Positions 1-26,895 of a stretch of DNA of 64,000 nucleotides are shown piece by piece. The notes beneath the pieces were generated by a model. The model saw only the letters and a program-made list of their open reading frames with translations, was not told the origin of the DNA and made no database searches. Both the position numbers and the translations under genes were made by a program. The stretch comes from Anaerolineales bacterium (GTDB lineage Bacteria; Chloroflexota; Anaerolineae; Anaerolineales; JBHHUI01): contig OZ252150.1 in assembly GCA_965248775.1 (NCBI GenBank), forward strand, positions 4,900,027-4,964,026, in the 5' to 3' direction. How positions within the stretch are numbered: the stretch's first letter is position 1; every line of letters begins with the position of its first letter.

Positions 1-1
1 C

Positions 2-985
2 ACGCCGCGGGGCGGGCCACGTTGGAATACGTCCACTATTCGTGGTATTCTGCGATCTCCAACTTATACGGGCACGGCTTATAGTGGCCGTACTCGTCCG
101 ATCCCCGCCCGCCAGCGCAAATCCGCCCTGTTGCCTGTTGGTCGGGGTGAAAGCATCCAGCCTGCGCCACCGGAAGAATGGATCGCTATCACTGTGCCCG
201 CTATCATTGACCAGGAAACATTCGATGCTGCCCAGGCGCGCCTGCAGAATAACAAAGCTTTGACACGTCGCAATAACAAGCGCCACGATTACCTGCTGCG
301 GGGCCTGGTCAGTTGCGGACAATGTCGCTTGTCTTCCACTGGACGTACGTGCGGAAAGTACCAGTATTACAAATGCCGGGGACGAACTGATTCCTTGCGG
401 GCTGCCAAAGGCGAACGTTGTACCGCTCGCTATCACGACCCTGTCGGGCGCGACAAGGGTGTGCCCGCCCGGCAACTCGATGAACTCGTTTGGGGAGACC
501 TGTGTGCAGTCCTGGCCGACCCAACTTTGATTACCCACGAACTGGAACGCGCTCGGGCCGGAGAATGGTTGCCACAAGCCTTGCAAGCACACCGCAAGAC
601 CGTCCGGCAAGCCCTGGCGCGGCTGGAACGGCAACAAGAACGCCTGTTGGAAGTGTATTTGGCTGAAACCATTGCGCGAGATGAATTCGAGCGCAAGCAC
701 CAAGAGCTGAACCAGATGCGCGATGGCCTCACCCAGCAATTGAGGCAACTCAACCTGCAGGCCCAACGGCAAGTTGATTTGCTTGGGCTGGCGAAAAACA
801 TCGAGGCGTTTTGTCAGCGAATCCACCCGACGCTGGATAGTCTGGATTTCTCCCAGCGCAGGCAATTGGTGGAATTGCTCGTCGACCGCGTGATCGTCGA
901 TGACGACAAAGTGGAAATCCGTTATGTTATCCCAACCAGTCCCAGCGGTGAAAACTCGCGCTTTTGTCATTTGCGTACAGACTAT
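2..985 (+). CDS. Large serine recombinase, C-terminal portion (5' end outside the window; 3' end abuts an IS remnant with no native stop)
   Basis: The frame is open from the window edge. It reads ...STIRGILRSPTYTGTAYSGR..., then a zinc-ribbon motif CGQC...YYKCRGR...C, then a coiled-coil-like region and ...VEIRYVIPTSP. Recombinase-like sequence stops near 985, where antisense transposase coding begins. A 27-nt in-frame insert lies at about 433-459. Confidence 0.75.
432..460 (+). repeat. Copy 1 of a 29-bp exact repeat with a hairpin core (ACCCTGTCG GGC GCGACAAGGGT), inside the recombinase CDS
   Basis: atcacgaccctgtcgggcgcgacaagggt is identical to 1238-1266. It adds 9 codons (HDPVGRDKG) between RY and VPARQLDELV. 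Confidence 0.9.
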
Positions 986-1938
986 TTCAATCCACATTCT
1001 CCGGCGATAACAGCGCAAGACAAGCTGCGGGTCGGCCAGGTTGGTTGCCAACAACCAGGGTACCTTTTCGCTGGCGCGCCAGTAGGCCAGCAGGTTGGCG
1101 TGATAGGCATACTTGGCTGTCAGGCGACAATACGGCAACCAGGCGCGCTGTCGCGGTTTACTGACCAGGCTGTCGAGGCGTTGCGACTTGTGCATGCCTT
1201 TGGGCTTGACCAGATAGCGACCTTTCTGACGCAAAACATCACGACCCTGTCGGGCGCGACAAGGGTATCGCCAGCGCCACGCTTTGAGCTGTTTCTGGAG
1301 AGGAATCTCGCCAAATTCAGCGTCGCCGACAAGGGTGACCGGCGTCCGCGGCGGCAACAGACCGCGCACGTAGGACAACAGAGCGACCTGCTTTTTGGTC
1401 GTGGAGTGTCCCCGGGAGTGCTGTACCCAGGTCCATGCCAGCGGGATTGTGCGACGCCGATAGGCAACCGCCACCATCAGCAACTGATGTCCGAAACCTA
1501 CCTTGCTCCCATCTACCACCAGATGCACCATACCGCCCGCCAAGCGATCCAGTATCCCGCGCGCAATTGGTCTGCACAGTCCAGCCCAGTACCGAACGAA
1601 CTGGGTCGGTATGTGGACTGCACTGGGTACCATGTGCGCACCTGGATCGCTGGATTATCCACCTCGCCCCGGCCGCGAGACGGGGGCAAGCGGCTCAACC
1701 GTCGCGCCCGGCTCGGCAAACAACTCAACCCTGGCATCTTCGCAGCAACTTTGCTCAGGTGCACCGCCTGTGCCGAATAAAGGCCTACCAGCAACCAGGT
1801 GAAATTCCGCAATCTGGTCACTCGCTCGCCGGGGTAAAGTTTGTCAAGTTTCCTCATCCAGATGTGATAAAGTTTCCATTGCGGCAGGGCGTCGCTCTCG
1901 GTAGTTGGTTTCGCAATCGCTACTTTAGCAGACGTCAT
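986..1938 (-). pseudogene. DDE transposase remnant (IS4/IS701-like superfamily), frameshifted and C-terminally truncated
   Basis: The N-terminal ORF 1513-1938 reads ...RLRNFTWLLVGLYSAQAVHLSKVAAKMPG...RARRLSRL...NPAIQVRTWY. It continues in another frame as RPIARGILDRLAGGMVHLVVDGSKVGFGHQLLMVAVAYRRRTIPLAWTWV...GDAEFGEIPLQ...LATNLADPQLVLRCYRRRMWIE and then breaks off at about 986. Confidence 0.65.
1238..1266 (+). repeat. Copy 2 of the 29-bp exact repeat, inside the transposase remnant (antisense to it)
   Basis: Identical to 432-460. On the minus strand it adds PCRARQGRD between WRWRY and VLRQKG. Confidence 0.9.
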
Positions 1939-1981
1939 GCCGCTTTCCTTAAACTGTCAGGTAGCTAGTAAAGCGAATGAG

Positions 1982-9771: not shown

Positions 9772-12695
9772 TCGAATGCTATAGCGCTCTGCGCTGCCAA
9801 GTCCCCCAGTCTCGGCCTGCGGCGACGCTATCCCCGGTCTGCCGCTGCGCAGCGGCAATCAGATGCAGAGAGTAATAACGGTCGCTTTCACGCAGGTGCA
9901 CAACTTCATCGAAACCGAACTGCATATCTTGGAGTTGTTCGGCATCATAAGGACGCGCGTTCTCGATCTTCAAAGTTGCATTTGAGAGATAAATCCTAGT
10001 CGTGGGCGAGACCGCTGAGTAATATCGATGACGATGAGCGACGAATGATACGAAAAAGAGTGACAACTTATATTGTGCTCGCCGTGCTCCTCGCCGGCGG
10101 CTATGCAATGCTGCGGGTTTCCAGTTGGCAGGGGAGCACCCAACTGCACACGCTCATGGAAGTGATAGCCACCTTGCTGGCACTGTTCATCGGCGTCATG
10201 GCCTTGCTGCGATTCTACAGCAATAAGAACAACACCATCTTGTTTATCGGTACCGGATTTTTGGGAACCGGCCTGCTCGATGCCTATCACGCCATCGTCA
10301 CGTCCTCATTTTTCAATCAGTTCTTCCCTTCGCCTGCCCCGTCACTGATTCCCTGGAGCTGGAACGCCTCGCGCATTTTCTTATCCATCTTTCTCTACCT
10401 GAGTTGGCTGGCCTGGCGCAGGGAGGCGCGGCTGGGGGAGAACGGCAGAATTCGGGAGCGCGCGATTTACCTGACAGCTGCCGGGTTGACCCTGGCGAGT
10501 TTTCTCTTCTCTTCGATAGTGCCCTTGCCGCGCGCCTATTACCCGGAAATTATATTTCATCGTCCGGAGGAGTTCGTCTCCGCCGTTTTCTTCCTGCTGG
10601 CCCTGGTCGGCTTTTGGAGCAAGGGCCAATGGCGCGACGAGGCTCTTGAGCATTGGCTCGTGCTCTCGCTCATTGTCGCGTTCATAGGCCAGACGATGTT
10701 CATGTCATTTTCGGGCCAGCTCTTCGATATGATGTTTGATGCTGCCCATCTGCTCAAGAAGGTGAGTTACATCTTTGTTCTCATCGGACTTCTGATCAGT
10801 ATGTATCGCCTTTTCAAGGAGGCTGAGACAGGTGCGCTGCAGATCAAGCTGGCCAATGAAGAACTTCTGCGCGAGGTCGAAGAGCGCAGTCAGGCAGAAA
10901 CGGAAAGACGAAAGCTCGCGGAATACCTGGATACTATTCTTCTAAATTTGCCTACGGGTGTAGCCATTCTTGAAGGTCCGGATTTTCGATATTTTCGAAT
11001 CAATAACATGCTTGCCGAGATCAATGGTTTGTCTATTGAAGATCATCTCGGAAGGACCCTGGCGGAAGTTTTACCCGCGGCAGCCCCGGATATTCAGCCC
11101 GGTTTAAACAGAGTCTTGCAAAGCGGCAAGCCGGGTCAACCGCGCGAATTCAGCACACGGTTGCCGAAGGACCCCCAGAAAGATCGTCATTTCATCGATA
11201 CCTTTTTCCCTATCTTCGGAGAAGAGGGAAAGCCACGGGGGGTAGGCGCAGTTGTGGTTGACATCACCGAACGCAAGCGTGCCGAGCAGCACCTACGCGA
11301 GAGCGAAGATCGCTACCGTAGCCTGTTCGATAGCATGCCTGTGGGCCTCTTCCGAACTTCGCCCGCCGGGCAAATCATCGACGCAAACCAAGCCTTGATG
11401 TCGATGTTTGGCTATCCGAGCCGCGAGTCATTTTTGGAAGTTGCCATATCAGAATTTTACGTAGAGTCCGGGGGCCGCCGCCGGTTTCAAGCCCTGATGG
11501 ATAAGGAAGGCATCGTACAGAGGCTCGAAGAGCAACAACGGAAGCGCGATGGGACCATCATCTGGACGGAGGTCAACGCACGCGCGGTCACGGACGGTAA
11601 CGAGATCGTCTATTACGAAGGCAGCGAACAGGACATCACCGAACGCAAGAAGGTCGAGGAGCGTATGCGAACCCTATCTATGGCGGTCGAACAGAATCCC
11701 TCCTCGATCATGATCACCGACGCCGAGCGTCGCATCGAATACGTCAACCCGCAGTTTACCGAGACATCAGGTTATGTGCTCGCAGAGGTGATCGGAAAGA
11801 ACCCGAGTATCCTGAACTCGGGCTCCCATCCGCCGGAATTCATGCAACAACTGAGGGATACGATCGATTCCGGCCGCGTGTTCCAGGCCGACTTCTGTAA
11901 CAAGAAAAAGAACGGCGAGCTTTACTGGGTGTTGCAATCCATCTCGCCCATCATCGATGAGGCGGGTGTTGTCACTCATTTTGTCTCGGCCCAAATAGAC
12001 GACACCGAGCACAAGCGGGCGGTGGAGGCACTACAGGAGAGCGAAGAACGCTATCGCGCGGTCGTCGAGGATCAGACAGAATTAATCGCCCGTTGGCTTC
12101 CGGATGGAACCCGCACATTTATTAACGAGAGCTACTGCCGCTACTTCGACAGATCGTACGAAGACCTGATTGGAACGAGATCGCTCCCATTTGAGTTTGA
12201 GACAACTGGGGATCGGGAGGTCATAGAACGTAGAATTCAGGCGCTCACCCCGCGTATCCCGGCAGCGACGAGCGAATTTCAAGTGACTCTTTCCAATGGA
12301 GATGTGCGCTGGCAGCAGTGGACGGATAGGGCCATCTTTGATGAGCAAGATCGATTGATCGAAATGCAGTCTGTGGGCCGGGACATATCCGAACACAAGC
12401 GGGCGGAGGAAGAGATAATCCATCAGGCATCAATTCTTGAACAGGTCCATAATGCTGCTATCACAATCGATTTTGACAACAAAATCCTATCTTGGAATAA
12501 ACATGCCGAAATGCTTTATCAGTGGAAAAGTGAAGAAGCAATTGGCAGAGATATTATCGAAATATTGTCTCCTGAAGAATTGAAAAGCAGAGCAGCAGAG
12601 AATATCGCAGAACTTAATAGAGAAGGGCATTGGGAAGGCGAATTCAATGTGCTCAGAAAAGATGGCACCACGATCCCGGCCCACATCATCAATAC

Positions 12696-13514
12696 GGTAG
12701 TGGTTACATGGTAACTGATGGGGACCACGCTGTATTGTAGTAATGGAGATACAACTTGAGTACAGCTTCATGGTAAACGTCGGACTTGGAGAAAGAAAGA
12801 GTTTTGCGCACGAAGCGAGCCAGTCTCTGGCGCAAGGTGTTGTTCCAGCGTTCCACGTGAGATGTCTGGCCGCTTTCTTTGCCGACACTTTGGTGAGTGT
12901 CGTTTGGTAAAACCTTCTGGTAAGCGTGCCAGAAGTCGCTGAAGGAGCAACACGCTTTGTAGGATGCTGGGATGGATTTCCATAACGCGCGACAACTTTT
13001 TTCACTGCGGTCGCCAATAAAATAGGCCACCACTTGGCGCGTGCGCCGACACAGCGCGACCCATATCCAACGTTTATCGTTTTTTGTGCGTACAAATGAC
13101 CATAATTCATCCAATTCCAGCACATCATCCGTTTTTACGGTTTCTAAAGTGTCAGCCAGGTTCGGCATAGCGCCGGCCTTCTCCAGAATCCAGCGTGCTA
13201 ATGTCTGCCGCGCGATGCCAAAGATGCGCTCAATGCCGCGCATACTGGCTCGCTCTCGATAGGTGCGTAGGACAAATTCTCTGATGAACTCAGGATAAGA
13301 ACGGCTTTGCGGTTCCAACATTCCATAAGCGGCGCAATCGAGACAATGAAACTTCTGACCGCCTTTATAGTCTGTACCATTCTTGACAATGTTGAGGCTC
13401 CTGCACTTTGAACACTCATGCGTGATGACACTCTGGATCATTTTGGCGCTCCTCTGTTTGGCAGGCCAACAACTTACTTTTTCCAGACTCATCAGTCAAC
13501 ATGTAACCACTACC
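12696..13514 (-). mobile_element. IS1-family insertion sequence, copy 1 (819 bp)
   Basis: Terminal inverted repeats ggtagtggttacatg / catgtaaccactacc. 8-bp target duplication atcaatac at 12688-12695 and 13515-13522. Near-identical to 26077-26895. Confidence 0.9.
12704..13492 (-). CDS. IS1-family transposase (single-ORF type, 262 aa)
   Basis: N-terminal zinc finger CSKCRSLNIVKNG...HCLDC. InsB-like core DELWSFV...WIWVAL...DFWHAYQKV...HVERWNNTLRQRLARFVRKTLSFSKS. Confidence 0.9.
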   Translation of the reverse strand: MSLEKVSCWPAKQRSAKMIQSVITHECSKCRSLNIVKNGTDYKGGQKFHCLDCAAYGMLEPQSRSYPEFIREFVLRTYRERASMRGIERIFGIARQTLARWILEKAGAMPNLADTLETVKTDDVLELDELWSFVRTKNDKRWIWVALCRRTRQVVAYFIGDRSEKSCRALWKSIPASYKACCSFSDFWHAYQKVLPNDTHQSVGKESGQTSHVERWNNTLRQRLARFVRKTLSFSKSDVYHEAVLKLYLHYYNTAWSPSVTM

Positions 13515-13563: not shown

Positions 13564-15114
13564 CAGTGGTTTGTTGACTCAAGATTATTGGGCATAAAGG
13601 CAGATGGCATTGCCCGCGAACACCCAGTCAAGCAGCGCCTGGAACGCAGGCGGTGGGGGCCGGTCCGACCACGCCCGCCAGAAGCGTTGCAACATGATCC
13701 ATGGCTCCAGCCAAGCGCGCACTTCTCGCAGCGCCGCCGGCCAACTGACGTTGGGACGCGGTTGTTTCGACCGCCGTATTTTTTTTTCCCGTCGCCCCCC
13801 AGTCTCGTCGACTGGACGAGGTCGTGCGCCGTTTGCTCTTGCGTCGTGCCGGTTGTTGCGTCTCATCGAGTTCGACCGTCTCGACCTCGCCGCGGGCCAA
13901 CGCCCACCAGCAAAAGGCGAAGGCGCAACACACCAGCTCCCAGTGGCGGCGGATGGCGTGGTCGGCGCGCACTTGATACTGGGCCCAGCCCAAGCTCTGC
14001 TTGACTTGCTTGTAGCTCTGCTCGACCCAGGCGCGCAGGCCGTACAGGCGCGTGACCTCGGCCAGGTTCGCCGCCGGCAGCGAGCTCTCTTGCGCACGAA
14101 GCGTGCGCGGGGATGGCAGGTTGGTCGCCAGATACCAGGTTGTCTGCTCGGGCAGCTGCACCGGGTCGGTGGTCACGACTACCAGGCGCTGCGCACGTTG
14201 CGGTCCGTACATCCGGCCGACGACTTCGAGCACCCACCTCGGCTCACGGTGTCCGTCTCGGAATTCTCGTACGACCTGGCGCCACTTGCCCAGCGCGTCC
14301 GGTTGCCACGGATAGCCCGCCACGAGCTCCGTGATCGAGCCCGGTTCCCCTTTGGGATGCCACCAGCTGAACGAGGGCGGCATCGCCACGACGTAGCCCA
14401 CCCCCAGCTTGTGCAGCCCGCCGATAAACTGGTCGTGCTTGCCGTAGAGGCTGTCCGCCACGACTGCCTTGAAGGGCACGCCCGCCTTGTGCGCACGCTC
14501 CACCAGCTCCAGCGCGAGCGCCAGCTTGGTGCGAAAGCCCGCATCTTTGTTGCCGCGCGCAAACCAGTGCGCTGGCGTGTACGGCTCGACTTCCAGCGGG
14601 TAGTAGAGCCGCTCGTCCGCCCAGAGCGCGTGCACCGACACCACACCGTTGTCGACCTTGCCGATACTGCCCAGATATTGGCGCCCAACATGCGCGGTGC
14701 TATTTCCCCACTTGCGGTCGCCGGTCTCATCGATGGCCAAAACACCAGCAGCAGTGGGCGCCAGCATCTCAAGCCGCTGCAGCAGCTCTCGCCGCAACTG
14801 ACCGACCGCCGCCGCATCCCAGTTCGACTCGGACAGGAACCACTGCAGGCGTTGCACCTGCGCCTGTTGCGCACCGGCCAGCGGCTCGGCGTTCGCCAGT
14901 GCGGTGAGCGTCTTGTTGCGCTCCGCAGGCAACAACAACCCTTCCAGATAGCGCCGGAACGCTTCGCGTTGGTTGCGTCGCGAAAACAAACCATCAAACT
15001 CCAGGGCGAAATCTTCCAGTGGACCGGGCGCGGGAGTGACATCCAGGCGTTTCGTCATGCTCCACCTCCACCACCTGTATACACCCGGTTTTTCCTTGAG
15101 TCAACAAACCACTG
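13564..15114 (-). mobile_element. IS701-family insertion sequence (1551 bp)
   Basis: Perfect 20-bp terminal inverted repeats: cagtggtttgttgactcaag at 13564-13583 and its reverse complement at 15095-15114. 4-bp target duplication atag at 13560-13563 and 15115-15118. Confidence 0.85.
13628..15058 (-). CDS. IS701-family DDE transposase (476 aa)
   Basis: ...FSRRNQREAFRRYLEGLLLPAERNKTL...AIDETGDRKWGNSTAHVGRQYLGSIGKVDNGVVSV...AVVADSLYG... is typical of IS701-like transposases. Confidence 0.8.
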   Translation of the reverse strand: MTKRLDVTPAPGPLEDFALEFDGLFSRRNQREAFRRYLEGLLLPAERNKTLTALANAEPLAGAQQAQVQRLQWFLSESNWDAAAVGQLRRELLQRLEMLAPTAAGVLAIDETGDRKWGNSTAHVGRQYLGSIGKVDNGVVSVHALWADERLYYPLEVEPYTPAHWFARGNKDAGFRTKLALALELVERAHKAGVPFKAVVADSLYGKHDQFIGGLHKLGVGYVVAMPPSFSWWHPKGEPGSITELVAGYPWQPDALGKWRQVVREFRDGHREPRWVLEVVGRMYGPQRAQRLVVVTTDPVQLPEQTTWYLATNLPSPRTLRAQESSLPAANLAEVTRLYGLRAWVEQSYKQVKQSLGWAQYQVRADHAIRRHWELVCCAFAFCWWALARGEVETVELDETQQPARRKSKRRTTSSSRRDWGATGKKNTAVETTASQRQLAGGAARSARLAGAMDHVATLLAGVVGPAPTACVPGAA

Positions 15115-17315
15115 ATAGGAATAAGTAATGACATCACTGAACGCAAGCAGGCAAAAGAGGCACTGCTCCGCTCAAACAGAGCGTTGCGTGTCTATAGCTC
15201 TTGCGGTCAGGCGCTAACGCGTGCAACAAATGAAATTGAGTTGCTGTATGAAATCTGCCGGCGGATTGTAGCTGATGGCGGCTACAAGCAGGCCTGGGTT
15301 GGCTTTGCGGGGCAAGACGAGCAAAAGACGGTGCGACCCGCAGGGCAGTATGGTTTCGAAGCTGGTTACCTGGACACACTCAACGTTGTCTGGTCGGATA
15401 CAGAGCACGGGCGCGGCCCCACAGGTACGGCCATCCGCACGGGGCAGCCAAGTGTGGCAAACCACATCCAGAGCGATCCTCGTTTCGAACCCCGGCGCGC
15501 GGCGGCGATCGAACAGGGCTACGCAGCTGCCCTAGCACTGCCGTTGATTTCAGGCGGCCAGACCCTTGGCGTGTTGATTATTCATGCCAGCGAGCCGGAT
15601 GCCTTCGACGCAGAGGAAGTTGCGCTGTTAGGCGAGGTTGCCGACGACCTGGCCTTTGGGGTTCTGGCGCTCCACGCCCTCGGTGAGGAATCCGAACAGC
15701 AGGCGCGGGCGCTCGCCGCCGAGCGGCGGCGACGGGAGCAACTGGAATTACTGGAGCAGGTGTCTTCGTCCTTGCGACAGGCGGAGAATATGGACGAGCT
15801 GTTCAGCGGCGTGGTAGAGGAAGTCCGAGCGTTGGTGCATATGGATGTCGAGGCGATTCTGTTGCTTCGGGGCGAACAATTGGAGTATGCGATCGTACGA
15901 GGGCCGCAGGAGTTGAAGGATTGGCTGCATAAAGATATCATCTCCAAAGATGAACTTGTGAAAATAGTGAAATCGGGCCAGGCCGAATTCAGGTCTGATT
16001 TGCCTTTTGATGTTCAAGGTTCCGCGGCAGTTTTGCCGCTCACATCTGGTCAGGGCGTTCATGGCGCGTTGATTTTGTATTGGTTTGAGCAGAAGGAATT
16101 TTCTGTGGATGAACAACGTCTGCTAGCTACCATTGTGGACATGGCCGGTATTGCGCTGGAAAGGATGCAGGTGTTCGAGACATTGGAACAGCAAGTTGCG
16201 GATCGCACCTTTGAACTTTCAACGCTATACGCAGTGACAACCCTGCTCGCTTCCGACGAGGACTTCTCAAGCATGCTCTCGGAGTCGCTTGAGAAGTTGT
16301 TGACTGCGATTGATGCAGAGGCGGGGGCGCTGCACCTGCTAGATGAGGAGCACACAAAATTAGAACTATTCGCACAGCATGGTCTGGACGTGGTGTTGGC
16401 CTCCGATCTCGATACCGTCGCGCTCGACAGTGAACTGTGGGGCCGGGTGATCATACAGGAGCAAGCGATGCTGCAAACGGGTCTGCAAGAAAATGGTCGT
16501 GTGCCGGCGGTGATTCGGGACACTGACCTGCAGGGCTTTGTTGGCGTGCCCATCCGGCCGAGTGATACGACACTCGGCGTCTTAGGTGTTTTTTATGCAC
16601 AGGGTCGAGAGCCATCTTCGGAACAGGTCGGCCTGATCAACCTGGTGGCCGAACAAATAGGGCTCGCTTTCGATCGTGCGCAGTTGCGCCAAAAGGCCGA
16701 GCTCGCCGCAATTACGGAAGAACGGCAACGCTTAGCGCGCGAGTTGCATGATGCAGTAATACAGTCTTTGTACAGCCTGTTGTTTCTTGCAAAAGCAGCC
16801 GGGAACTTTGCCGCGTCCGGCAAGTGGGGCCAGGCTAGACACAACCTGGTAGCGGTTCAGGAATCTGCGCAAAAAGTACTCAAAGAAATGCGCTTGCTGG
16901 TTTATGAATTGTTGCCCGCTTCGCTGCAGGAGCGTGGCCTGGTCGGCATTTTGCAACACAGGCTCAGAGCTGTGGAGCAGCGTTCAGGCATGGAAACCCA
17001 CTTTGGCGCGGAAGGGAATATCGAATTGCCCAGCGCGCTGCAATTAGGCATCTACCGCATCGCGCAGGAGGCGCTGAACAATGTGTTGAAACACGCGTCG
17101 GCAAGCGAAGTAAGCTTACACTTGTCGCGCGACGGCCAGCGAGTAGAAATGGAGATTGAGGACAACGGGAATGGCTTTAATGTGAATGATTCCAGCGCAG
17201 GCATGGGACTGCAAAGCATGCGCGAACGCGCCGAAGCTCTGGGAGGTGTGCTGCGCATAACTTCCAAAATAGGAGCAGGCACAAGCGTGCAACTTGTAAT
17301 CGAGGAGCTGGCGGC

Positions 17316-17963
17316 ATGACAGAGAAAATAAAACTTGTGGTGGTTGACGACCATGCAGTCGTGCGCACGGGCATCTCGGCCTGGGTGGCATCCGAGCCCG
17401 ATTTGGCGCTGGTCGGAGAAGCTGCCGATGGGAAGCAGGGCGTAGCCAAAGCGCTTGAACTCAAGCCGGACGTGATTCTGATGGACCTGGTCATGCCCAA
17501 GAAAGACGGCATCGAGGCCATCCGGGAGATCGTGCGAGAAAATGCAGAGGCGCGCATATTGATGATGACCAGCTTTTCCGAACAAGCCAAGTCCGTGGAA
17601 GCAATCCGAGCCGGTGCCATGGGCTTCATCCTGAAAGACACCTCACCCGAAGAAATGCTGCGGGCGATCCGAGACGTGCATGCGGGTAAACCGTGGCTAT
17701 CTGCAGAGATCACGCGTGCGCTGATGCACGCACGTCGCTTGCACAAAGAGGCCGCTCCTGAAAGCAAGCAGCTGACGAAACGCGAAGTCGAGGTGCTGAA
17801 ACTCATCGCGCAGGGAATGTCAGATGCGGAAATCAAGAGTGAACTCACGATCAGCAAAGCAACTGTACGCTTTCATGTGACGAACATTCTGGCCAAGTTA
17901 CACTTAGAGAACCGTACGCAAGCCGCCTTATATGCCATCCGGCAAAGATACGTGACTGTGTAG
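17316..17963 (+). CDS. NarL/LuxR-family response regulator, paralog 2
   Basis: Roughly 92-93% aa identity to 8460-9107 by eye. Same REC and LuxR HTH motifs, and an ATGA overlap with the kinase end. Confidence 0.95.
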   Translation: MTEKIKLVVVDDHAVVRTGISAWVASEPDLALVGEAADGKQGVAKALELKPDVILMDLVMPKKDGIEAIREIVRENAEARILMMTSFSEQAKSVEAIRAGAMGFILKDTSPEEMLRAIRDVHAGKPWLSAEITRALMHARRLHKEAAPESKQLTKREVEVLKLIAQGMSDAEIKSELTISKATVRFHVTNILAKLHLENRTQAALYAIRQRYVTV

Positions 17964-17996
17964 TGCAGCTGTACCTCAAACATTTCATCTCGATAA

Positions 17997-18021
17997 GACG
18001 GTCTTCTCAGACCGTCTTTTT
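17997..18021 (+). terminator. Intrinsic terminator after response regulator 2
   Basis: gacggtc-ttctca-gaccgtc followed by ttttt. Homologous to 9141-9165. Confidence 0.75.
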
Positions 18022-18193
18022 GATCATCTAGAAGCGTTGCCACACTTGTTACGCGCATACTTTGCGGGCCTAAAGTTTTCGTTGGGCGCTGCTCTGTATA
18101 TTAACCAGGATTTGAGAGATCGAAAAGACTGTCATTATCGGTTAAGCAAGACTAACGCTATGAGGGAAGAAATCTTTTACATAATCCGATAGT

Positions 18194-18640
18194 ATGAGCG
18201 TGAATGAGGAATTGGAAGCAGTTACAAACGAAGGGGATGAAATGAGCCAAGTTCTGATAGTAGAAGATATACCCGCCAACCAGATAATCATGAGCAAGGC
18301 ACTGACCAAGGTTGGCGGTTACGAAGTGATGGTGACGGAAGATGTAGAACAAGTATTGGCACTGACGCAGGCGGGCCAGGTAGGGTTGGTGGTGATGGAC
18401 ATAAACCTGAAAAACAGTTTCTACCAAGGGCGCGGCGTGGACGGCCTGGAGATTACCGGCATTCTGAAGAGCGACCCGATAACGCGTGACATTCCGGTAT
18501 TGCTCGCATCGGCGCACGCTGTGAACGGCAAAGGGGCAAGGCTGTGCGCGCAATCTGGCGCCGATGGATATATCGGCAAACCGTTTGAACTTCACGCATT
18601 TGTCGGCCATGTGCAGCAGCTGCTCGCAAAGTGCTCGTAG
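18194..18640 (+). CDS. Single-domain CheY-like response regulator, paralog 2
   Basis: Colinear with 9325-9771 (VLIVEDIPAN, VVMDINL, LLASAHA, GYIGKPF). The upstream ~100 bp are also conserved. Confidence 0.85.
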   Translation: MSVNEELEAVTNEGDEMSQVLIVEDIPANQIIMSKALTKVGGYEVMVTEDVEQVLALTQAGQVGLVVMDINLKNSFYQGRGVDGLEITGILKSDPITRDIPVLLASAHAVNGKGARLCAQSGADGYIGKPFELHAFVGHVQQLLAKCS

Positions 18641-19386
18641 CCGAATGCTGTAGTGACTGTTTTCGTTTTCCTCGCCAACACCGCTCGCTAACCGACATCC
18701 TCGCCACGCTGGACTCGTCATGGCACACCGCAACGGATAAAAAGTGTCACAACAACAGATATCGCAGCGCTACATGAGATTCTGGTTTTTTTGTTAGCGG
18801 AGATGACATGAATAAGACTACTTTGCGCCTCAGTGTGCCCATTCTAAGCCTTTGGGGGTTGCTCTTGAGTTCAACCGGAGCTTGGGTCGTGTTCGCTTTG
18901 CGCGGACCTATTGTTACTCAGCTTTATGGCGTGGACATCTTGGGATGCGTGAAATGGGTATTTCTAGTCGACCATCTTTGGCTGCGTATGTGTAAATAAG
19001 TGGGCGTTGCTGGGCTAACGCTAATCTCTCTGATCGCGAGGTCGGATTTAACGATTTTTTAGAACGTAAAGATCTAAATGAAATCGAAGATTATCGAACA
19101 CAATAGAGTAAAAATTTTCTATCTAGATGTCTTCAGCTTGGCCACTGTATGCGTAGACATCCTCTACAGACATGCGAGATCACGAAATGTATTCAGGTAA
19201 CGATGCGCAATCCCATCCAGCCCTACAGGACGGGGTGGACTGAACGCAACGACATGCTCGACATTTCGCCAGACGCTGTCCTGCGTATTAAGCAGAGATT
19301 GAGATATCGGAAAGACTTTCATTCTCGGCCAAGCAAAAATAGCACTATAAGGGAAGAAACCTTTCAGAAAATCCAACCGTTTCAGT

Positions 19387-20350: not shown

Positions 20351-22951
20351 ATGAATATAAAAGCAAGTTTACGGGTCAAATTACTGGCGGCGTTTGTTAT
20401 TGTGTTGGTCGTCAGCAGCGCCGTGGCCGTCTTTGGCTACAAGACACAGGTGGATCGCAGCGAAACAATTGGGTGGATCGACCACACCAACGAAGTAATA
20501 ACAGCAGCAGATGCAACCCTGATCGGTCTGATCAACATGGAGACCGGTTTTCGCGGGTATATGGCCACCGGCGATGAGAACTTCCTCGAACCGTATCACG
20601 TCGGCGAGGTGGAGGTCGCTGAGACTCTCGCGGAATTGAAGGAACTCACCTCCGACAATCCGGCCCAGGTGGCTCGCTGGGAAGAGATTGAAGTCGCTTG
20701 GCATAGCTGGCAAGCAGAATGGATTGAACCGGGCATCGCGATTCGGGAACTGGCCAACAACGCCACCCATAGTGCAGATGCTCTCCACGATGTGATTGCC
20801 GAAGGGCGCGGCAAAGAATCCATGGACGAGTTGCGCGGCGTTCTGCACGAGCTGGAGAACGAGATGGTGTCCGAGGGTAATCTGGGGGCCACCGTTCTGG
20901 TCGCCCAGTTAACAGAAGACATCGTCAATCAAGAGACCGGCATGCGTGGCTTTATTGTGACGGGTGAAGAGGGCTTCCTGGATCCTTACACAGGCGGCCA
21001 AGCGGATTGGGTCAGTCTTATGGCTGCGCTACAACCTAGCCTGGCTGGCAGTGCTTCTGCCCAGGATCTGGCCGAGCGTACCGACGCACTATCCGCTCAG
21101 TGGCAGGAAGATGCGGCCGAGCCCTGGATCGCGGCCCGGCGCGGGGTGAATGAAAATCCCACGACGGTTGATGATGTCGCCGCTTATGTGGACAGCGGGG
21201 GCGGCAAGCAGTTTATGGATCTCATGCGATTGGATCTGGCCGAAGCGCGTGAGGTTGAGCACAACTTGCTTGTGGAGCGCGAGGAGGCAGATGCGACTGC
21301 CACCGCGCTGGCGAGTAGCGTGACGATCTTCGGCACTCTGGCGGCAATTGTCGCCGGCCTGTCAATCGCTTTCTTCCTCTCACACAACATTTCCAACGCC
21401 GTGAATGTCATCGCGAAAGCAGCAGCGGGCATCGCTGCCGGGGACCTCGACCAACAGGTACAGGTCGAGAGTAAAGATGAGTTGGGCGCGATGGCAACCA
21501 CATTCCAACAAATGATCGCCTACCTAAGAGAAATGTCCGCGGCAGCCAGGCTGCTCGCACAGGGCGACCTGACCGCCAAGGTAGCTCCGCAGTCCGAGAA
21601 GGACGAGCTGGGCAACGCCTTTGCACAGATGATCGCCAACCTGCGCGACATAATAGGTACGGTGTCCGACAACACCGCCAGTGTCGAGGGGGCGGCGAGC
21701 GGCCTGCTCCAAATTTCCGGACAAGCCGGGCAAGCGACCTCACAGATCGCCGGCACCATCCAACAAATCGCGCAGGGCACAGTGCAGCAATCTTCAGCTG
21801 TCACGGAAACTGCCGGAACTGTTGAGCAGGTGGGGCGTGCCATCGACGGTGTAGCGAAGGGTGCCCAGGAACAGGCAACTGCCGTCGCCAGTTCTTCCGA
21901 AATGACCGCACAGATCTCAACTGCCGTACAACAGGTGGCGGCCAATGCCCAGGCCGGCGCCAAAGGCGCGGCCGAGGAGGCCGAATCGGCTCGCGACGGC
22001 GCACAGAAAGTAGACGCCACGGTTGCCGGCATGGAATCCATCCGGGAGAAAGTTGGGCTCTCGGCCGAGAAGGTGCAGGAGATGGGGCAGCGACCCGAGG
22101 AAATCGGCGCCATTGTCGAGACTATCGACGACATCGCCTCGCAGACCAACCTGCTGGCGCTGAACGCGGCCATCGAAGCCGCCCGCGCCGGCGAACACGG
22201 CAAGGGCTTCGCGGTGGTGGCCGACGAAGTGCGCAAACTGGCCGAGCGCGCCAGCGGCGCCACGCGCGAGATCTCTGACCTAATCAAGAATATCCAGAAG
22301 ACGGTGGCCGAGGCCGTGACGGCCATGAACGACGGCGCCACCGAAGTGGAAGCAGGTGTGGAGCGCGCCAACGAATCGGGGCAAGCACTGGCAGATATCC
22401 TGGAGGGTGTCGAGCAGGTTACGCAGCAAGTGGAAGAGATTGCCTCCGCGGCGGAAGAGATGGAAAATTCGACCGATGAGTTGGTGAAATCGATTGACGG
22501 CGTCTCCGCTGTGGTGGAAGAGAATACGGCTGCCACCGAAGAAATGTCGGCCGGCTCCAGCGAGGTGACGCAGGCTATGGAGAATATCGCCAGCATTAGC
22601 GAGCAGAACAGCGCAGCGGCGGAGGAAGTGAGCGCCGCCACGGTGGAGATGACCGCCCAGGTAGATGAAGTGACCACCTCGGCCCAAATCCTAAGCGACC
22701 TGGCGAGTACGCTACAACAAGCCGTGTCGCAGTTCACGCTGTCGACAAATGGCGACGGTGAAGCGGCTTCGCGTCCTCGTCTAGTCGACGAGACTGGGCA
22801 GCACCCCGGCGGGGCGCCGACCCGACGTGGGGGACGTGGTGGCGCAACTGTCGGCGAGCAAGCCCAGGCTGAGCAGGGAGCGCTTGTGGCAAGCTCACCC
22901 GCGAGCAATGGGCGTCAGTATGAAAAGCTGCCGGTTGCCGGCGGCGACTAA
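20351..22951 (+). CDS. Methyl-accepting chemotaxis protein with CHASE3-type periplasmic domain, HAMP and MCP signalling domain
   Basis: N-terminal TM helix, CHASE3-like [20 protein letters not shown] and a second [20 protein letters not shown]. Second TM helix, HAMP ([16 protein letters not shown]). Highly conserved hairpin [40 protein letters not shown]. Confidence 0.95.
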
Positions 22952-24373: not shown

Positions 24374-25702
24374 GGAACGAGAATTAAATAATTTGGGCAG
24401 TTGGTTCACAACGGATGCAAGCAGTGATATTCTCTTGGCTTCATCAGAACACTAGCCCGGAGGCCATGATGAAACCCTATGCGCCCGAACATGAAGAAAT
24501 GATGCGCCGCTTTTACAACAGCTTGAACGAGAAAGATGGGCGTCGCTTTGCTGGTTTCGAAGCCTTGAGATTTGGACACGGCGGACGGAGTTACATTGCG
24601 CGGGTGTTGGGGTGCAGTCGCAACACGGTGAGCAAAGGCGCCCGCGAAGTCAGTGGCTTGCCCAAGGGCGAAGTGGAGCAGCGCATTCGGAAGCCAGGCG
24701 GCGGACGCAAACCGTACTACGTCACATGGGGGGCGCAACTTGCTGAGAAGTTCCTGGCAGTGTTGCGCGAGCACACAGCCGGTGACCCGCTGGACGAGAG
24801 GGTGCGCTGGACGAACCTGACCCCGGGCGAGATTGTTGCGGCGTTGCGGGCCGAGCACGACATCGTGGTCAGCAAATATGTGGTGCGCAAGTTGCTGCAG
24901 AAGCACAACTATCGCCGCCGAAAAGCGCAAAAGAAACTCGGTTTGAAGGCCGAGATTGAAAACCGCAACGAGCAATTTGAGAACATCACGCGGCTCAAGA
25001 CCGAATTCGAAGCGGCGGGCAATCCCATTGTCAGCATGGACAGCAAGAAAAAGGAATATCTGGGCAATTTCTACCGAGACGGACATTTGTACACCCTGGA
25101 AGAACTGCAAACTTATGACCATGATTTCAACAGCTATGCTGCTGGGGTCAGCATTCCTCACAGTCTCTACGACTTGCGTCTCAATGTCGGCTACATCCAA
25201 CTCGGCGGCAGTCATGATACCAGTGAATTCGCTTGCGATAGCTTTCGCCATTGGTGGTACACATACGGCCACTACCACTATCCCAACGCCACTTCTATTC
25301 TCGTGCTTTGCGATGGCGGCGGGAGTAACAGTTCCCGCTACTACATCTTCAAGCAAGACTTGCAAGCACTGGCCGATGAAATCGGGGTCGAAATTCGCAT
25401 TGCTCACTATCCACCCTATTGCTCGAAATACAACCCCAGCGAACACCGTTTCTTCCCGCATGTTACCCGCGCTTGCCAAGGCGTGATCTTCACCAGCCGC
25501 AAACTCGTCAAAGAACTGATGGAAAAAACCAGCACCAAGACCGGACTGAAAGCTTTTGTCCATGTTATTGACCAGGTCTACGAAACCGGTCGTAAAGTAG
25601 CCACAGATTTCAGGGACAACATGCGCATTATCTTTGATGATTTCTTGCCCCAATGGAATTACCGCGCTCTCCCATTTGCACAAGTTATTTAATTCTCATT
25701 CC
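24374..25702 (+). mobile_element. ISAzo13-family insertion sequence, copy 1 (1329 bp)
   Basis: 18-bp inverted repeats, ggaacgagaattaaataa versus the reverse complement of ttatttaattctcattcc, with 1 mismatch. 3-bp target duplication cta at 24371-24373 and 25703-25705. Near-identical to 59902-61230. Confidence 0.85.
24415..25692 (+). CDS. ISAzo13-family DDE transposase (425 aa)
   Basis: ...RRFYNSLNEKDGRRFAGFEALRFGHGGRSYIARVLGCSRNTVSKGAREV...RIRKPGGGRKPY...SMDSKKKEYLGNF...VLCDGGGSNS...HYPPYCSKYNPSEHRFF..., the pattern I recognise for ISAzo13-like transposases. Confidence 0.75.
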   Translation: MQAVIFSWLHQNTSPEAMMKPYAPEHEEMMRRFYNSLNEKDGRRFAGFEALRFGHGGRSYIARVLGCSRNTVSKGAREVSGLPKGEVEQRIRKPGGGRKPYYVTWGAQLAEKFLAVLREHTAGDPLDERVRWTNLTPGEIVAALRAEHDIVVSKYVVRKLLQKHNYRRRKAQKKLGLKAEIENRNEQFENITRLKTEFEAAGNPIVSMDSKKKEYLGNFYRDGHLYTLEELQTYDHDFNSYAAGVSIPHSLYDLRLNVGYIQLGGSHDTSEFACDSFRHWWYTYGHYHYPNATSILVLCDGGGSNSSRYYIFKQDLQALADEIGVEIRIAHYPPYCSKYNPSEHRFFPHVTRACQGVIFTSRKLVKELMEKTSTKTGLKAFVHVIDQVYETGRKVATDFRDNMRIIFDDFLPQWNYRALPFAQVI

Positions 25703-26076: not shown

Positions 26077-26895
26077 GGTAGTGGTTACATGTTGACTGAT
26101 GAGTCTGGAAAAAGTAAGTTGTTGGCCTGCCAAACAGAAGAGCGCCAAAATGATCCAGAGTGTCATCACGCATGAGTGTTCAAAGTGCAGGAGCCTCAAC
26201 ATTGTCAAGAATGGTACAGACTATAAAGGCGGTCAGAAGTTTCATTGTCTCGATTGCGCCGCTTATGGAATGTTGGAACCGCAAAGCCGTTCTTATCCTG
26301 AGTTCATCAGAGAATTTGTCCTACGCACCTATCGAGAGCGAGCCAGTATGCGCGGCATTGAGCGCATCTTTGGCATCGCGCGGCAGACATTAGCACGCTG
26401 GATTCTGGAGAAGGCCGGCGCTATGCCGAACCTGGCTGACACTTTAGAAACCGTAAAAACGGATGATGTGCTGGAATTGGATGAATTATGGTCATTTGTA
26501 CGCACAAAAAACGATAAACGTTGGATATGGGTCGCGCTGTGTCGGCGCACGCGCCAAGTGGTGGCCTATTTTATTGGCGACCGCAGTGAAAAAAGTTGTC
26601 GCGCGTTATGGAAATCCATCCCAGCATCCTACAAAGCGTGTTGCTCCTTCAGCGACTTCTGGCACGCTTACCAGAAGGTTTTACCAAACGACACTCACCA
26701 AAGTGTCGGCAAAGAAAGCGGCCAGACATCTCACGTGGAACGCTGGAACAACACCTTGCGCCAGAGACTGGCTCGCTTCGTGCGCAAAACTCTTTCTTTC
26801 TCCAAGTCCGACGTTTACCATGAAGCTGTACTCAAGTTGTATCTCCATTACTACAATACAGCGTGGTCCCCATCAGTTACCATGTAACCACTACC
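26077..26895 (+). mobile_element. IS1-family insertion sequence, copy 2 (819 bp)
   Basis: Same inverted repeats as copy 1. 8-bp target duplication tcttctac at 26069-26076 and 26896-26903. Confidence 0.9.
26099..26887 (+). CDS. IS1-family transposase (262 aa), copy 2
   Basis: One aa difference from 12704-13492 (R to K at residue 14). Confidence 0.9.
   Translation: MSLEKVSCWPAKQKSAKMIQSVITHECSKCRSLNIVKNGTDYKGGQKFHCLDCAAYGMLEPQSRSYPEFIREFVLRTYRERASMRGIERIFGIARQTLARWILEKAGAMPNLADTLETVKTDDVLELDELWSFVRTKNDKRWIWVALCRRTRQVVAYFIGDRSEKSCRALWKSIPASYKACCSFSDFWHAYQKVLPNDTHQSVGKESGQTSHVERWNNTLRQRLARFVRKTLSFSKSDVYHEAVLKLYLHYYNTAWSPSVTM

Follow-up and report, generated by a model that had tools for sequence, protein, structure and literature searches.

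A 27-nt hairpin inserted in transposase and recombinase genes is a probable REP-like mobile DNA unit of very small size

Two identical copies of a 27-nt hairpin, located in two unrelated mobile-element genes, were found to be recent insertions. We interpret them as copies of a very small non-autonomous mobile DNA unit, related in kind to bacterial REP elements, that enters genes (mostly those of other mobile elements) without a scar and is then amplified passively by its hosts. We put the probability of this reading at about 0.7. The first-pass annotation of the window (the whole stretch of 64,000 nucleotides analyzed here) had reported a perfect 29-nt repeat, with an imperfect palindrome as its core, that adds nine codons in frame to both genes. 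This observation is confirmed. Its interpretation as a tiny mobile or copied hairpin, rather than a trace of shared ancestry, is supported, with two corrections given below.

The sequence ATCACGACCCTGTCGGGCGCGACAAGGGT occurs at positions 432-460 and 1238-1266, both on the + strand, with 29/29 identity. No match was found in any of 100 dinucleotide-preserving shuffles, even with 3 mismatches allowed, and thus the repeat is not due to chance. The inserted unit itself is 27 nt (433-459 and 1239-1265, with 1 nt of positional ambiguity). The two additional identical flanking bases are coincidental, since a third copy (locus L010) has a different 5' neighbour. The core folds as a 9-10-bp imperfect stem with one bulged A and a 4-nt loop, with a free energy of -8.0 kcal/mol alone and -8 to -9.6 kcal/mol in context. 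The z-scores are only -1 to -1.7; the hairpin is, therefore, not exceptional by energy alone. The unit as a whole consists of a 5-6-nt single-stranded tag (TCACGA) followed by this imperfect, GC-rich hairpin. The + strand reads ...CTARY-HDPVGRDKG-VPARQLDELVW in a large serine recombinase, and the - strand reads ...WRWRY-PCRARQGRD-VLRQKGRY in an IS4-family transposase remnant, as had been annotated. The two copies, their hosts and the related units located in the course of this work are as follows.

1..987 (+): host 1, the 3' part of a large serine recombinase gene that runs off the window start, has lost its last ~10 codons and its stop (by C-terminal comparison) and is fused to the IS4 remnant; it matches Pfam Recombinase and Zn_ribbon_recom and has homologs 65-78% identical.
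433..459 (+): 27-nt unit D, copy 1 (TCACGA tag followed by CCCTGTCG/GGCG/CGACAAGGG), adding HDPVGRDKG to the recombinase.
985..1968 (-): host 2, an IS4-family insertion-sequence remnant (NF033591) with one IS end at 1951-1968; by alignment with intact relatives, the transposase is truncated after ...RRRMWIE and frameshifted.
1239..1265 (+): 27-nt unit D, copy 2, antisense to its host gene, adding PCRARQGRD to the IS4 transposase.
1573..1625 (-): 26-nt palindromic unit B (CAGTGCAGTCCACA|CTGGACTGTGCA), defined by DNA alignment with intact relatives, which breaks the transposase reading frame and is split here by the nested unit B'.
1585..1611 (-): 27-nt unit B' (TACCGACCCAGTTCGTTCGGTACTGGG), nested in the loop of unit B.
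1662..1685 (-): 24-nt unit A (CCCCGTCTCGCGGCCGGGGCGAGG), adding PPSRGRGEV to the N-terminal part of the IS4 transposase; covariance-model hit at 35.3 bits.
13798..13821 (-): 24-nt unit (CCTCGTCCAGTCGACGAGACTGGG) encoding SSSRRDWG in the C-terminal tail of an IS701-family transposase (NF033540; ORF 13628-15058, - strand), present in all 12 protein variants of this IS; covariance-model hit at 38 bits.
22775..22798 (+): 24-nt unit (CCTCGTCTAGTCGACGAGACTGGG) in the C-terminal tail of a CHASE3-HAMP-MCP chemoreceptor gene (20351-22951), the only unit of the window in an ordinary gene; covariance-model hit at 36 bits.

To determine whether the nine residues are an insertion or a family feature, we compared both host proteins with their homologs. 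Absence of the residues from orthologs and existence of further copies had been set as tests beforehand, and both came out in favour of the annotation. All 119 serine-recombinase homologs lack the nine residues, which are the only window-specific residues in the recombinase alignment, and the Zn-ribbon profile match stops at the insert. Of 120 IS4-transposase homologs, 119 lack the residues; the single exception is a second copy of the same IS elsewhere in the same genome. At the DNA level, copy 2 forms a clean 27-nt gap against two intact relatives (P0256 and P0257) and against a further IS type (L020-type). The alignment of the recombinase with a solved serine-integrase structure ends before the insert.

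Next, we searched for the unit elsewhere. An unbiased metagenome scan found the identical 27 nt in an unrelated IS982 transposase of marine metagenomes, in a third reading frame (TLVAPDRVV). The insert is present in JGI, ENA and Logan assemblies, and the insert-bearing IS982 lies at two or more different flanks in several of them. A 99.5%-identical empty-site allele is also on record: filled and empty alleles differ by 5 mismatches in 1017 nt plus one 27-nt indel, with 0-1 nt of junction ambiguity and no target duplication. Thus, shared ancestry and a purely local copying accident are excluded. The apparent copy number is, however, low. The JGI metagenome scan gave one hit, and a scan of 185,579 representative genomes gave six singleton hits with other loops in unrelated phyla, which is chance level. 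Scans of viral contigs returned only a chance hit for the 27-mer and none for the 24-mer. In a local test a perfect 9-mer reached only E of about 200-800 at the size of a 5.8-billion-protein collection, which ruled out the use of the unit's six-frame peptides to find more hosts.

The insertion contexts correct the annotation in two respects. The R-Y|V codon context shared by the two window copies is a coincidence, since other sites are GD|K, LD|L, RL|LD and so on. One of the 9-residue inserts lies next to the catalytic GD|K motif. Likewise, a length that is a multiple of three is not a rule of the family, since unit B is 26 nt and breaks the reading frame of its host.

The 27-mer belongs to a wider set of 21-27-nt units (21, 24, 26 and 27 nt were observed) that share a layout: a tag with the consensus YNNCGW (TCACGA, TACCGA or CCNCGT) and a stem starting with CC and ending with GG. 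The 24-mers occur in IS982, IS4, ISKra4, ISNCY and IS701 transposases and in one chemoreceptor. Seven units lie within this 64-kb part of the 6.37-Mb source genome, all intragenic and six of them in mobile-element genes; one intergenic cluster was found in a relative. A perfect-stem 'CACG + hairpin' scan and a generic 'tag + CC...GG hairpin' scan of the window showed no hidden swarm of further units, and no Rfam family matched in the window. For six distinct 24-mers, 100% of cells pair, four pairs change on both sides, none of 500 shuffles reaches the observed covariation, and slid controls pair at 24-52%. The 24-mers keep two interleaved helices compatible with a compact pseudoknot, while the 27-mer lacks the second helix.

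Comparison of related IS copies revealed precise turnover of the units. Unit A is present or absent at the same site among near-identical IS copies of the related genome in ERZ28669063/ERZ21829562: six copies of one IS are identical except for 1 SNP and the presence or absence of this unit. The same chromosomal locus in two samples of this close relative differs by 1 mismatch in 13.5 kb plus the 24-nt unit. Units A and B are 49/50 identical in IS lineages that are themselves 82% identical, and are absent from the intermediate lineage; unit A is absent from P0256 and P0257. Unit B' is present in the window copy and absent from the L020-type IS, which has unit B alone.

We also examined the insertion points. 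They lie in loops of inverted repeats more often than random positions do, with a mean flanking arm of 4.56 bp compared to 3.33 bp (P = 0.00075). Sites A, B and B' have arms of 6-7 bp (the target of unit B lies in the loop of a 7-bp inverted repeat), but the three sites of the 27-mer itself have arms of only 2-4 bp. No conserved flanking 4-5-mer was found among ten sites.

To look for a mobilizing enzyme, the 27 larger unique ORFs of the window were scanned, and no Y1/HUH gene was detected among them. A close relative encodes a RAYT-like protein with HUH and Tyr motifs at L031 18514-19113, which scores 68.1 bits against NF047646 (below the equivalog cut-off of 80) and 27.5 bits against PF01797 (above the threshold of 23). 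This gene is flanked by GTAG-type REPs that differ from the units, and no enzyme could be linked to the latter.

Taken together, the analysis shows that the 27-mer is an insertion rather than a family feature, that it inserts without target duplication or scar, and that the identical unit sits in three unrelated genes in at least two kinds of sample. It also shows that members of the wider set with the same layout are gained or lost precisely at a fixed chromosomal locus, recur at the same sites in diverged IS lineages, nest in each other's loops, keep their helices through compensatory changes and are copied passively whenever their host IS transposes. The mechanism, in contrast, is inferred. 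The units would move as folded single-stranded DNA, would be cut and rejoined next to the tag by an HUH (Y1) tyrosine transposase of the REP-associated/IS200 type ('peel and paste'), and would land preferentially in single-stranded loops of other hairpins. This inference is consistent with the fact that TnpA_REP requires an imperfect palindrome with a bulge preceded by a conserved motif (PMC8266576) and that intragenic in-frame REPs are documented (PMC3733652). In this view, a 27-nt unit with five of six frames open would usually just add nine residues, and copies would survive where these are tolerated, above all in transposase and recombinase genes. The concentration in mobile-element genes could be explained by tolerance alone.

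Other explanations appear less likely. Enzyme-independent insertion, by replication template switching between hairpin-prone sequences or capture of filler DNA during break repair, followed by gene conversion among IS copies, is the strongest rival but remains unlikely. It would account for the preference for loops of inverted repeats, where replication stalls and template switching occurs, for the filled/empty polymorphism among identical IS copies, and for the fact that no dedicated enzyme was tied to the units. However, the identical 27 nt occur in three genes with unrelated flanks and no microhomology beyond 0-1 nt, the same unit recurs at the same site in IS lineages from different genomes, and a conserved tag next to variable, covarying stems is the signature of protein recognition (PMC8266576). 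It is doubtful that the units are a functional module selected to tune transposase expression or activity. They do concentrate in transposase genes, the 24-mers could form a pseudoknot, and unit B splits the transposase into two ORFs, as in frameshift-regulated IS families, yet that IS has six fresh copies. On the other hand, the units occur in both orientations relative to transcription, at unrelated positions of unrelated proteins, and also in a chemoreceptor tail and an intergenic cluster; near-identical IS copies with and without unit A both proliferate, and no slippery sequence was seen on reading the aligned DNA just upstream of unit B, without a formal search.

Scars of nearly precise excision of a larger transposon are similarly improbable. 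The sequences are palindromic, as joined inverted-repeat ends would be, and sit in IS-rich DNA, but the unit is asymmetric, with a tag on one side only and an off-centre palindrome, empty sites are perfectly clean without target duplication, and no longer element carrying these ends was seen in 332 kb. Furthermore, the identical 27 nt occur at three unrelated sites, units nest inside each other, and a scar would not need compensatory changes that keep its helices. A local accident or artefact (gene conversion between neighbouring genes, ancestral residues, an assembly or adapter artefact) could be suggested by the 806-bp distance and same orientation of the two window copies and by 11/21 matches in the upstream 21 nt. 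It is refuted by the third host gene in independent assemblies, the fourth copy elsewhere in the source genome, the homolog comparisons and the presence of the units in both short-read and long-read assemblies. A CRISPR repeat, a dif/att recombination site, a target-site duplication, a sequencing adapter and an archaeal bulge-helix-bulge intron were also considered; none fits the spacing, the sequence or the clean empty sites.

A bolder possibility, which we regard as tentative, is that the units represent a previously undescribed superfamily of 21-27-nt structure-guided mobile hairpins outside the cyanobacteria. Such units would be parasites of parasites that home scarlessly and recurrently into hairpin loops of insertion-sequence DNA and into each other, excise precisely, and use IS transposition and horizontal transfer as their vehicle. 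They would be among the smallest mobile DNAs known, and the two covarying, interleaved helices of the 24-mers would be the recognition code for an unidentified HUH-type enzyme.

If the main reading holds, this is mobile DNA near the lower size limit, one tag plus one hairpin, with unusually clean natural evidence of activity in the form of filled and empty alleles at one chromosomal locus, recurrence at identical sites and nesting. It offers a tractable system for the long-standing question of how REP-like sequences actually disseminate, and the defined target sites (hairpin loops A and B) and the candidate Y1 enzyme make the mechanism directly testable. It also shows that transposase genes themselves accumulate such passengers, which matters for IS annotation (split or lengthened transposases), for the use of IS sequences as evolutionary clocks and for understanding how short peptides are added to proteins.

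Among known systems, MITEs are likewise non-autonomous and palindromic and are sometimes fused in frame to ORFs (PMC3184786), but they are 100-400 bp long with terminal inverted repeats and target-site duplications, neither of which is present here. Elements of the IS200/IS605 family and their hairpin-only derivatives (PATEs) insert and excise seamlessly without target duplication, as the units do, and their hairpins are recognized together with adjacent short motifs by a Y1 HUH transposase acting on single strands (PMC8266576). Those elements need a hairpin at each end and insert 3' of a fixed tetra- or pentanucleotide, whereas each unit here is a single 21-27-nt module without a conserved flanking target. 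Rickettsia palindromic elements are also inserted in frame in protein-coding genes and add a short peptide. The analogy drawn with them in the first-pass annotation is apt, since the short RPE-4 and RPE-6 are classed as CGTC-tagged REPs (PMC3733652). However, RPE-1 is about 100-150 bp, RPEs are found in housekeeping genes of an obligate intracellular lineage, their tag is different, and no association with insertion sequences has been reported.

The small dispersed repeats SDR1-8 of heterocystous cyanobacteria (Elhai et al. 2008, Genome Res 18:1484; PMC2527708) match the units in their very small size of 21-27 nt and proposed mobility. SDR5 inserts precisely inside a palindromic target, between the 3rd and 4th base of HIP1 (as cited in PMC4390886 and PMC5861425), and SDRs reportedly form hairpin families and nest within other mobile elements. 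They were reported only in Nostocaceae (PMC5861425), while the present host is non-cyanobacterial and inferred to be probably Chloroflexota-like, and the sequences and tags appear to be different. Presence or absence at one chromosomal locus, recurrence at identical sites and concentration in transposase genes are documented here for the present units.

Finally, in REP/REPIN elements and their RAYT (TnpA_REP) tyrosine transposases the conserved unpaired tetranucleotide is GTAG or CGTC, which the YNNCGW tag is not, although the 24-mers contain CGTC across the tag/stem junction (the 27-mer has CGAC). REPs number tens to hundreds per genome, mostly extragenic and downstream of ORFs, whereas the units seen here are overwhelmingly intragenic, in mobile-element genes and of low apparent copy number, and no REPIN-type dimers of the 27-mer were seen. 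A cognate RAYT gene is typically flanked by its own REPs, while the RAYT-like gene of the close relative is flanked by a different, GTAG-type REP. At the same time, a 20-40-bp GC-rich imperfect palindrome with a bulge in the stem, preceded by a short conserved unpaired motif, is common to REPs and the units (PMC8266576; PMC3733652), single REP units encoding about 9-10 residues occur inside ORFs (PMC3733652), and some REPs, such as T. roseum GTAG-23, sit inside small host palindromes.

The 29-nt string ATCACGACCCTGTCGGGCGCGACAAGGGT occurs twice in the window, and the two copies are identical at 29 of 29 positions. None of 100 dinucleotide-preserving shuffles of the sequence yielded a match, even when three mismatches were allowed. 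The copies are located as follows:

432-460, + strand: copy 1, in the 3' part of a large serine recombinase gene
1238-1266, + strand: copy 2, antisense within a frameshifted, truncated IS4-family transposase (NF033591)

The core folds into a 9-10-bp imperfect stem with one bulged A and a GGCG loop. The calculated energy is -8.0 kcal/mol for the core alone and -8 to -9.6 kcal/mol in context, with z-scores of only -1 to -1.7, so the hairpin is not remarkable by energy alone. The recombinase was identified by matches to Pfam Recombinase and Zn_ribbon_recom, the zinc-ribbon match stopping at the insert. Copy 1 is read as CTARY-HDPVGRDKG-VPARQLDELVW and copy 2 as WRWRY-PCRARQGRD-VLRQKGRY. At a junction near position 985 the recombinase gene, which has lost its last ~10 codons and its stop, is fused to the truncated IS4 remnant. 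The deposited genome annotates here a 528-aa chimeric ORF (P0121; ORF 131-1780, + strand) that reads on through the antisense of the IS4 remnant.

To determine whether the nine extra residues are a family feature, both host proteins were aligned with their homologs. All 119 recombinase homologs, at 65-78% identity, read CTARY|VP... with no residues in the nine columns, and these nine residues are the only window-specific insertion in the recombinase alignment. Of 120 IS4 transposase homologs, 119 lack the nine residues, and a DNA alignment with two intact 356-aa relatives (P0256 on contig L029 and P0257 on contig L030) revealed a clean 27-nt gap. The single homolog with the insert, P0255, differs from the window copy at three residues, has an intact C-terminus, is not encoded in the window and lies on the same 6,366,660-bp contig. 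It is, therefore, a second copy of this IS elsewhere in the source genome, and the unit travels with the IS. P0255 also carries near its C-terminus a 22-residue insertion (...FASAPRRDAPSPGCTGPGDPTWA...) that looks like further hairpin units.

Next, the JGI metagenome collection was scanned for the stem arms with any loop. Of six hits, five had other loops, as chance predicts, while one (contig L010, Ga0066383_10074062) contained the identical 28 nt, including the GGCG loop. L010 is a complete 1,044-bp IS982-family element bounded by inverted repeats. Its transposase reads ...ALGD-TLVAPDRVV-KAYIS..., a third reading frame of the unit, placed right at the conserved GDK motif. None of its best 120 homologs has the 310-aa length of the insert-bearing allele: nearly all are 301 aa and five are 302-316 aa. 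An empty allele, P0001 (contig L014), is the same IS with 5 mismatches in 1,017 nt and a single 27-nt indel. The empty site is GGCGAC|AAAGCC, with a junction ambiguity of one base and no target duplication. The insert-bearing allele was found in JGI, Logan and several ENA assemblies and with two different sets of flanks (contig L015 against contigs L016 and L017), so this IS kept moving after it acquired the unit. In contrast, a scan of the contigs of sequenced representative genomes gave only six chance-level singletons in unrelated phyla. The unit is therefore rare among those genomes.

The 27-mer is not the only unit of this kind. The same IS982 cluster contains an allele (P0249, contig L019) with a different 24-nt insert at another site, again against a 99%-identical empty allele and with no duplication. 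An IS4 relative (P0259) has further inserts of about 27 and 24 nt, and its 24-mer matches the L019 24-mer at 20/24 positions, with a compensatory stem change. A fuzzy scan of all 332 kb of collected sequence, followed by a covariance model, revealed more 24-mers in ISKra4 and ISNCY transposases (contig L024), in an IS701-type gene (contig L020, a 21-nt variant) and in the window itself:

1662-1685: in the IS4 remnant
13798-13821: in the tail of an IS701 transposase
22775-22798: in the C-terminal tail of a CHASE3-HAMP-MCP chemoreceptor

Written tag-first, all units read YNNCGW followed by a stem that starts CC and ends GG:

TCACGA-CCCTGTCG-GGCG-CGACAAGGG, the 27-mer of the two window copies
TACCGA-CCCAGT-...-ACTGGG
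CCNCGT-CCAGYC-...-GRCTGG-G

On six distinct 24-mers, two interleaved helices (2-5:15-18 and 7-11:19-23) pair in 100% of cells. Four pairs change on both sides, 0 of 500 shuffles reach the observed covariation and slid controls pair at 24-52%, although only six sequences were used and the helices were read off the same sequences. Units occur in both orientations relative to the host gene, which points to a DNA-level element and not an mRNA signal. No Rfam family, not even a tRNA, reaches its gathering score anywhere in the 64 kb.

Evidence of recent, scarless turnover came from sample ERZ28669063. This sample yielded a contig (L031) syntenic with window 27.7-39.7 kb at 91-94% nucleotide identity and so contains a close relative of the source organism. 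That the IS loci L020-L025 from this sample belong to the same organism is inferred from the shared sample. In the sample an IS4-type IS occurs at six loci, each with its own 9-bp target duplication. The six copies are identical except for one SNP and the presence (3 copies) or absence (3 copies) of exactly CCCCGTCTCGCGGCCGGGGCGAGG, hereafter unit A, the empty site being CCGGTTGC|TGGATAATCC. L024 and L026 are the same chromosomal locus from two samples, and over 13.5 kb they differ by one mismatch, two single-base gaps and this 24-nt unit. The IS4 remnant of the window is only 82% identical to that IS, yet it carries the identical unit A at the same site and a 26-nt unit, B, at the same site (49/50 unit bases identical), while P0256, which is 90% identical to the L020-type IS, lacks both. 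Under equal divergence, 49/50 identity has a probability of about 6e-4. Either the units were inserted recurrently at the same sites after the lineages split, or they were ancestral, strongly conserved and precisely lost. Both alternatives imply real, seamless mobility, though conversion between IS copies could contribute within a genome.

Unit length is not always a multiple of three. The 26-nt unit B (10009-10034 in L020-L025; window 1573-1625) shifts the reading frame and splits the IS4-type transposase into two ORFs, and yet this IS has six near-identical copies with fresh 9-bp target duplications. It must be mobilised in trans, use an internal start, or be recoded.

Against the intact relatives, the IS4 lineage shows six insert sites (A to E plus B'). 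In the window copy the 27-nt unit B' lies nested in the loop of unit B. An intergenic cluster of nested hairpin units, arranged as in a Russian doll, is found in the relative (L025 3235-3345). It includes an inner insert that starts with the TCACGA tag, and separate C/G-tract hairpins (CCCCTCCCC...GGGGAGGGG) lie just upstream of the cluster (L025 3081-3181). Across nine sites, the insertion point lies within the loop of a pre-existing inverted repeat more often than random positions of the same genes do (mean arm 4.56 against 3.33 bp, resampling P = 0.00075). Sites A, B and B' have 6-7-bp arms, whereas the three sites of the 27-mer have only 2-4 bp. No conserved flanking sequence was found.

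The window is unusually IS-dense. The recombinase remnant, the IS4 remnant, the IS701 element and the following IS-like ORFs make up about 18% of the 64 kb:

12704-13492 (- strand) and 26099-26887 (+ strand): two copies of an IS1-like 262-aa ORF
24415-25692 and 59943-61220: two copies of an ISAzo13-like 425-aa ORF
50795-52171 (+ strand), 55243-56619 (+ strand) and 57849-59225 (- strand): three copies of an IS5/IS1182-like 458-aa transposase ORF

None of these seven ORFs carries a detected hairpin unit. One of the IS1-like elements begins exactly where a MASE3-PAS sensor gene (10045-12714, + strand) ends. The sensor gene lacks an output domain and may have been truncated by the IS insertion. 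Six of the seven units in the window lie in the 18% (binomial P about 2e-4). In the flanks from the relative, all three strong model hits outside the IS4-type IS lie in transposase genes, which make up about 11% of the DNA. In 11.1 kb of syntenic ordinary genes there is no indel longer than a few bases, whereas between the same two genomes the ~1-kb IS4-type element differs by four whole units. This concentration may reflect tolerance, nine extra residues being purged from housekeeping genes, and with a generous estimate of tolerant DNA the excess is only marginal. It may alternatively reflect real targeting. All 12 protein variants of the IS701 carry its 24-mer, so hitch-hiking on proliferating IS elements is a major route of amplification. 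The IS701 transposase variants of the source genome (window 13628-15058, - strand, and its paralogs P0399-P0410) also differ by a 6-nt (Leu-Glu) indel, ALALELVERAH against ALALVERAH, which is probably due to slippage in a short tandem repeat.

The anatomy of the units, an imperfect palindrome with a bulge preceded by a short conserved motif, and their behaviour, that is insertion with no duplication, seamless presence or absence and a preference for hairpin loops, are those of DNA processed as a folded single strand by HUH (Y1) tyrosine transposases. TnpA_REP is reported to require exactly such a bulged palindrome preceded by a conserved motif (PMC8266576). IS200/IS605 elements insert and excise seamlessly. 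The genome of the relative encodes a RAYT-like protein (L031 18514-19113), which scores 68.1 bits against NF047646, 'REP-associated tyrosine transposase', below the 80-bit cut-off, and 27.5 bits against PF01797, above the threshold of 23. The HUH motif NHIHG and the Tyr motif RNYYEH are both present. The gene sits between hsdS and hsdM fragments of a type I restriction-modification locus and is surrounded by GTAG-type REPs (GTARGGGCACGGCGRGAT; region 16987-18845), one inverted pair of which lies in frame inside the RAYT gene itself. These REPs, however, are unlike the units and are absent from the window and the other loci. The enzyme assignment is therefore an inference.

We conclude that the repeat is a tiny mobile hairpin inserted in frame into unrelated mobile-element genes, and that it reflects neither shared ancestry nor a local accident. 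The repeat described in the first-pass annotation is real, and its suggestion of a tiny mobile hairpin element is supported by our data. Beyond that suggestion, the analysis itself shows a diverse family of related units with covarying helices, natural filled and empty alleles at one locus, recurrence at identical sites, nesting and a strong association with insertion sequences, whereas processing by an HUH-type enzyme is only inferred. That the 27-mer is an inserted, dispersed mini-element we regard as all but secure. The full statement we put at roughly 70%, and within it the assignment of the enzyme remains tentative.

The closest known kinds are tagged REPs, 20-40-bp stem-loops with an unpaired GTAG or CGTC tag. 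They are usually extragenic, but in-frame intragenic copies are documented, including Rickettsia RPE-4 and RPE-6 (PMC3733652). The small dispersed repeats of cyanobacteria are 21-27 nt long, and SDR5 is reported to insert precisely inside the HIP1 palindrome. The present units do not carry the REP tag, their own tag being YNNCGW, and in what could be examined they are not extragenic. They are not MITEs, since they have no terminal repeats of a parent IS and no duplication, and they are not IS200/IS605 derivatives in the strict sense, since they have one hairpin and no fixed target. We therefore describe them beside these systems, as units with a tag of their own, and not as a member of any named family.
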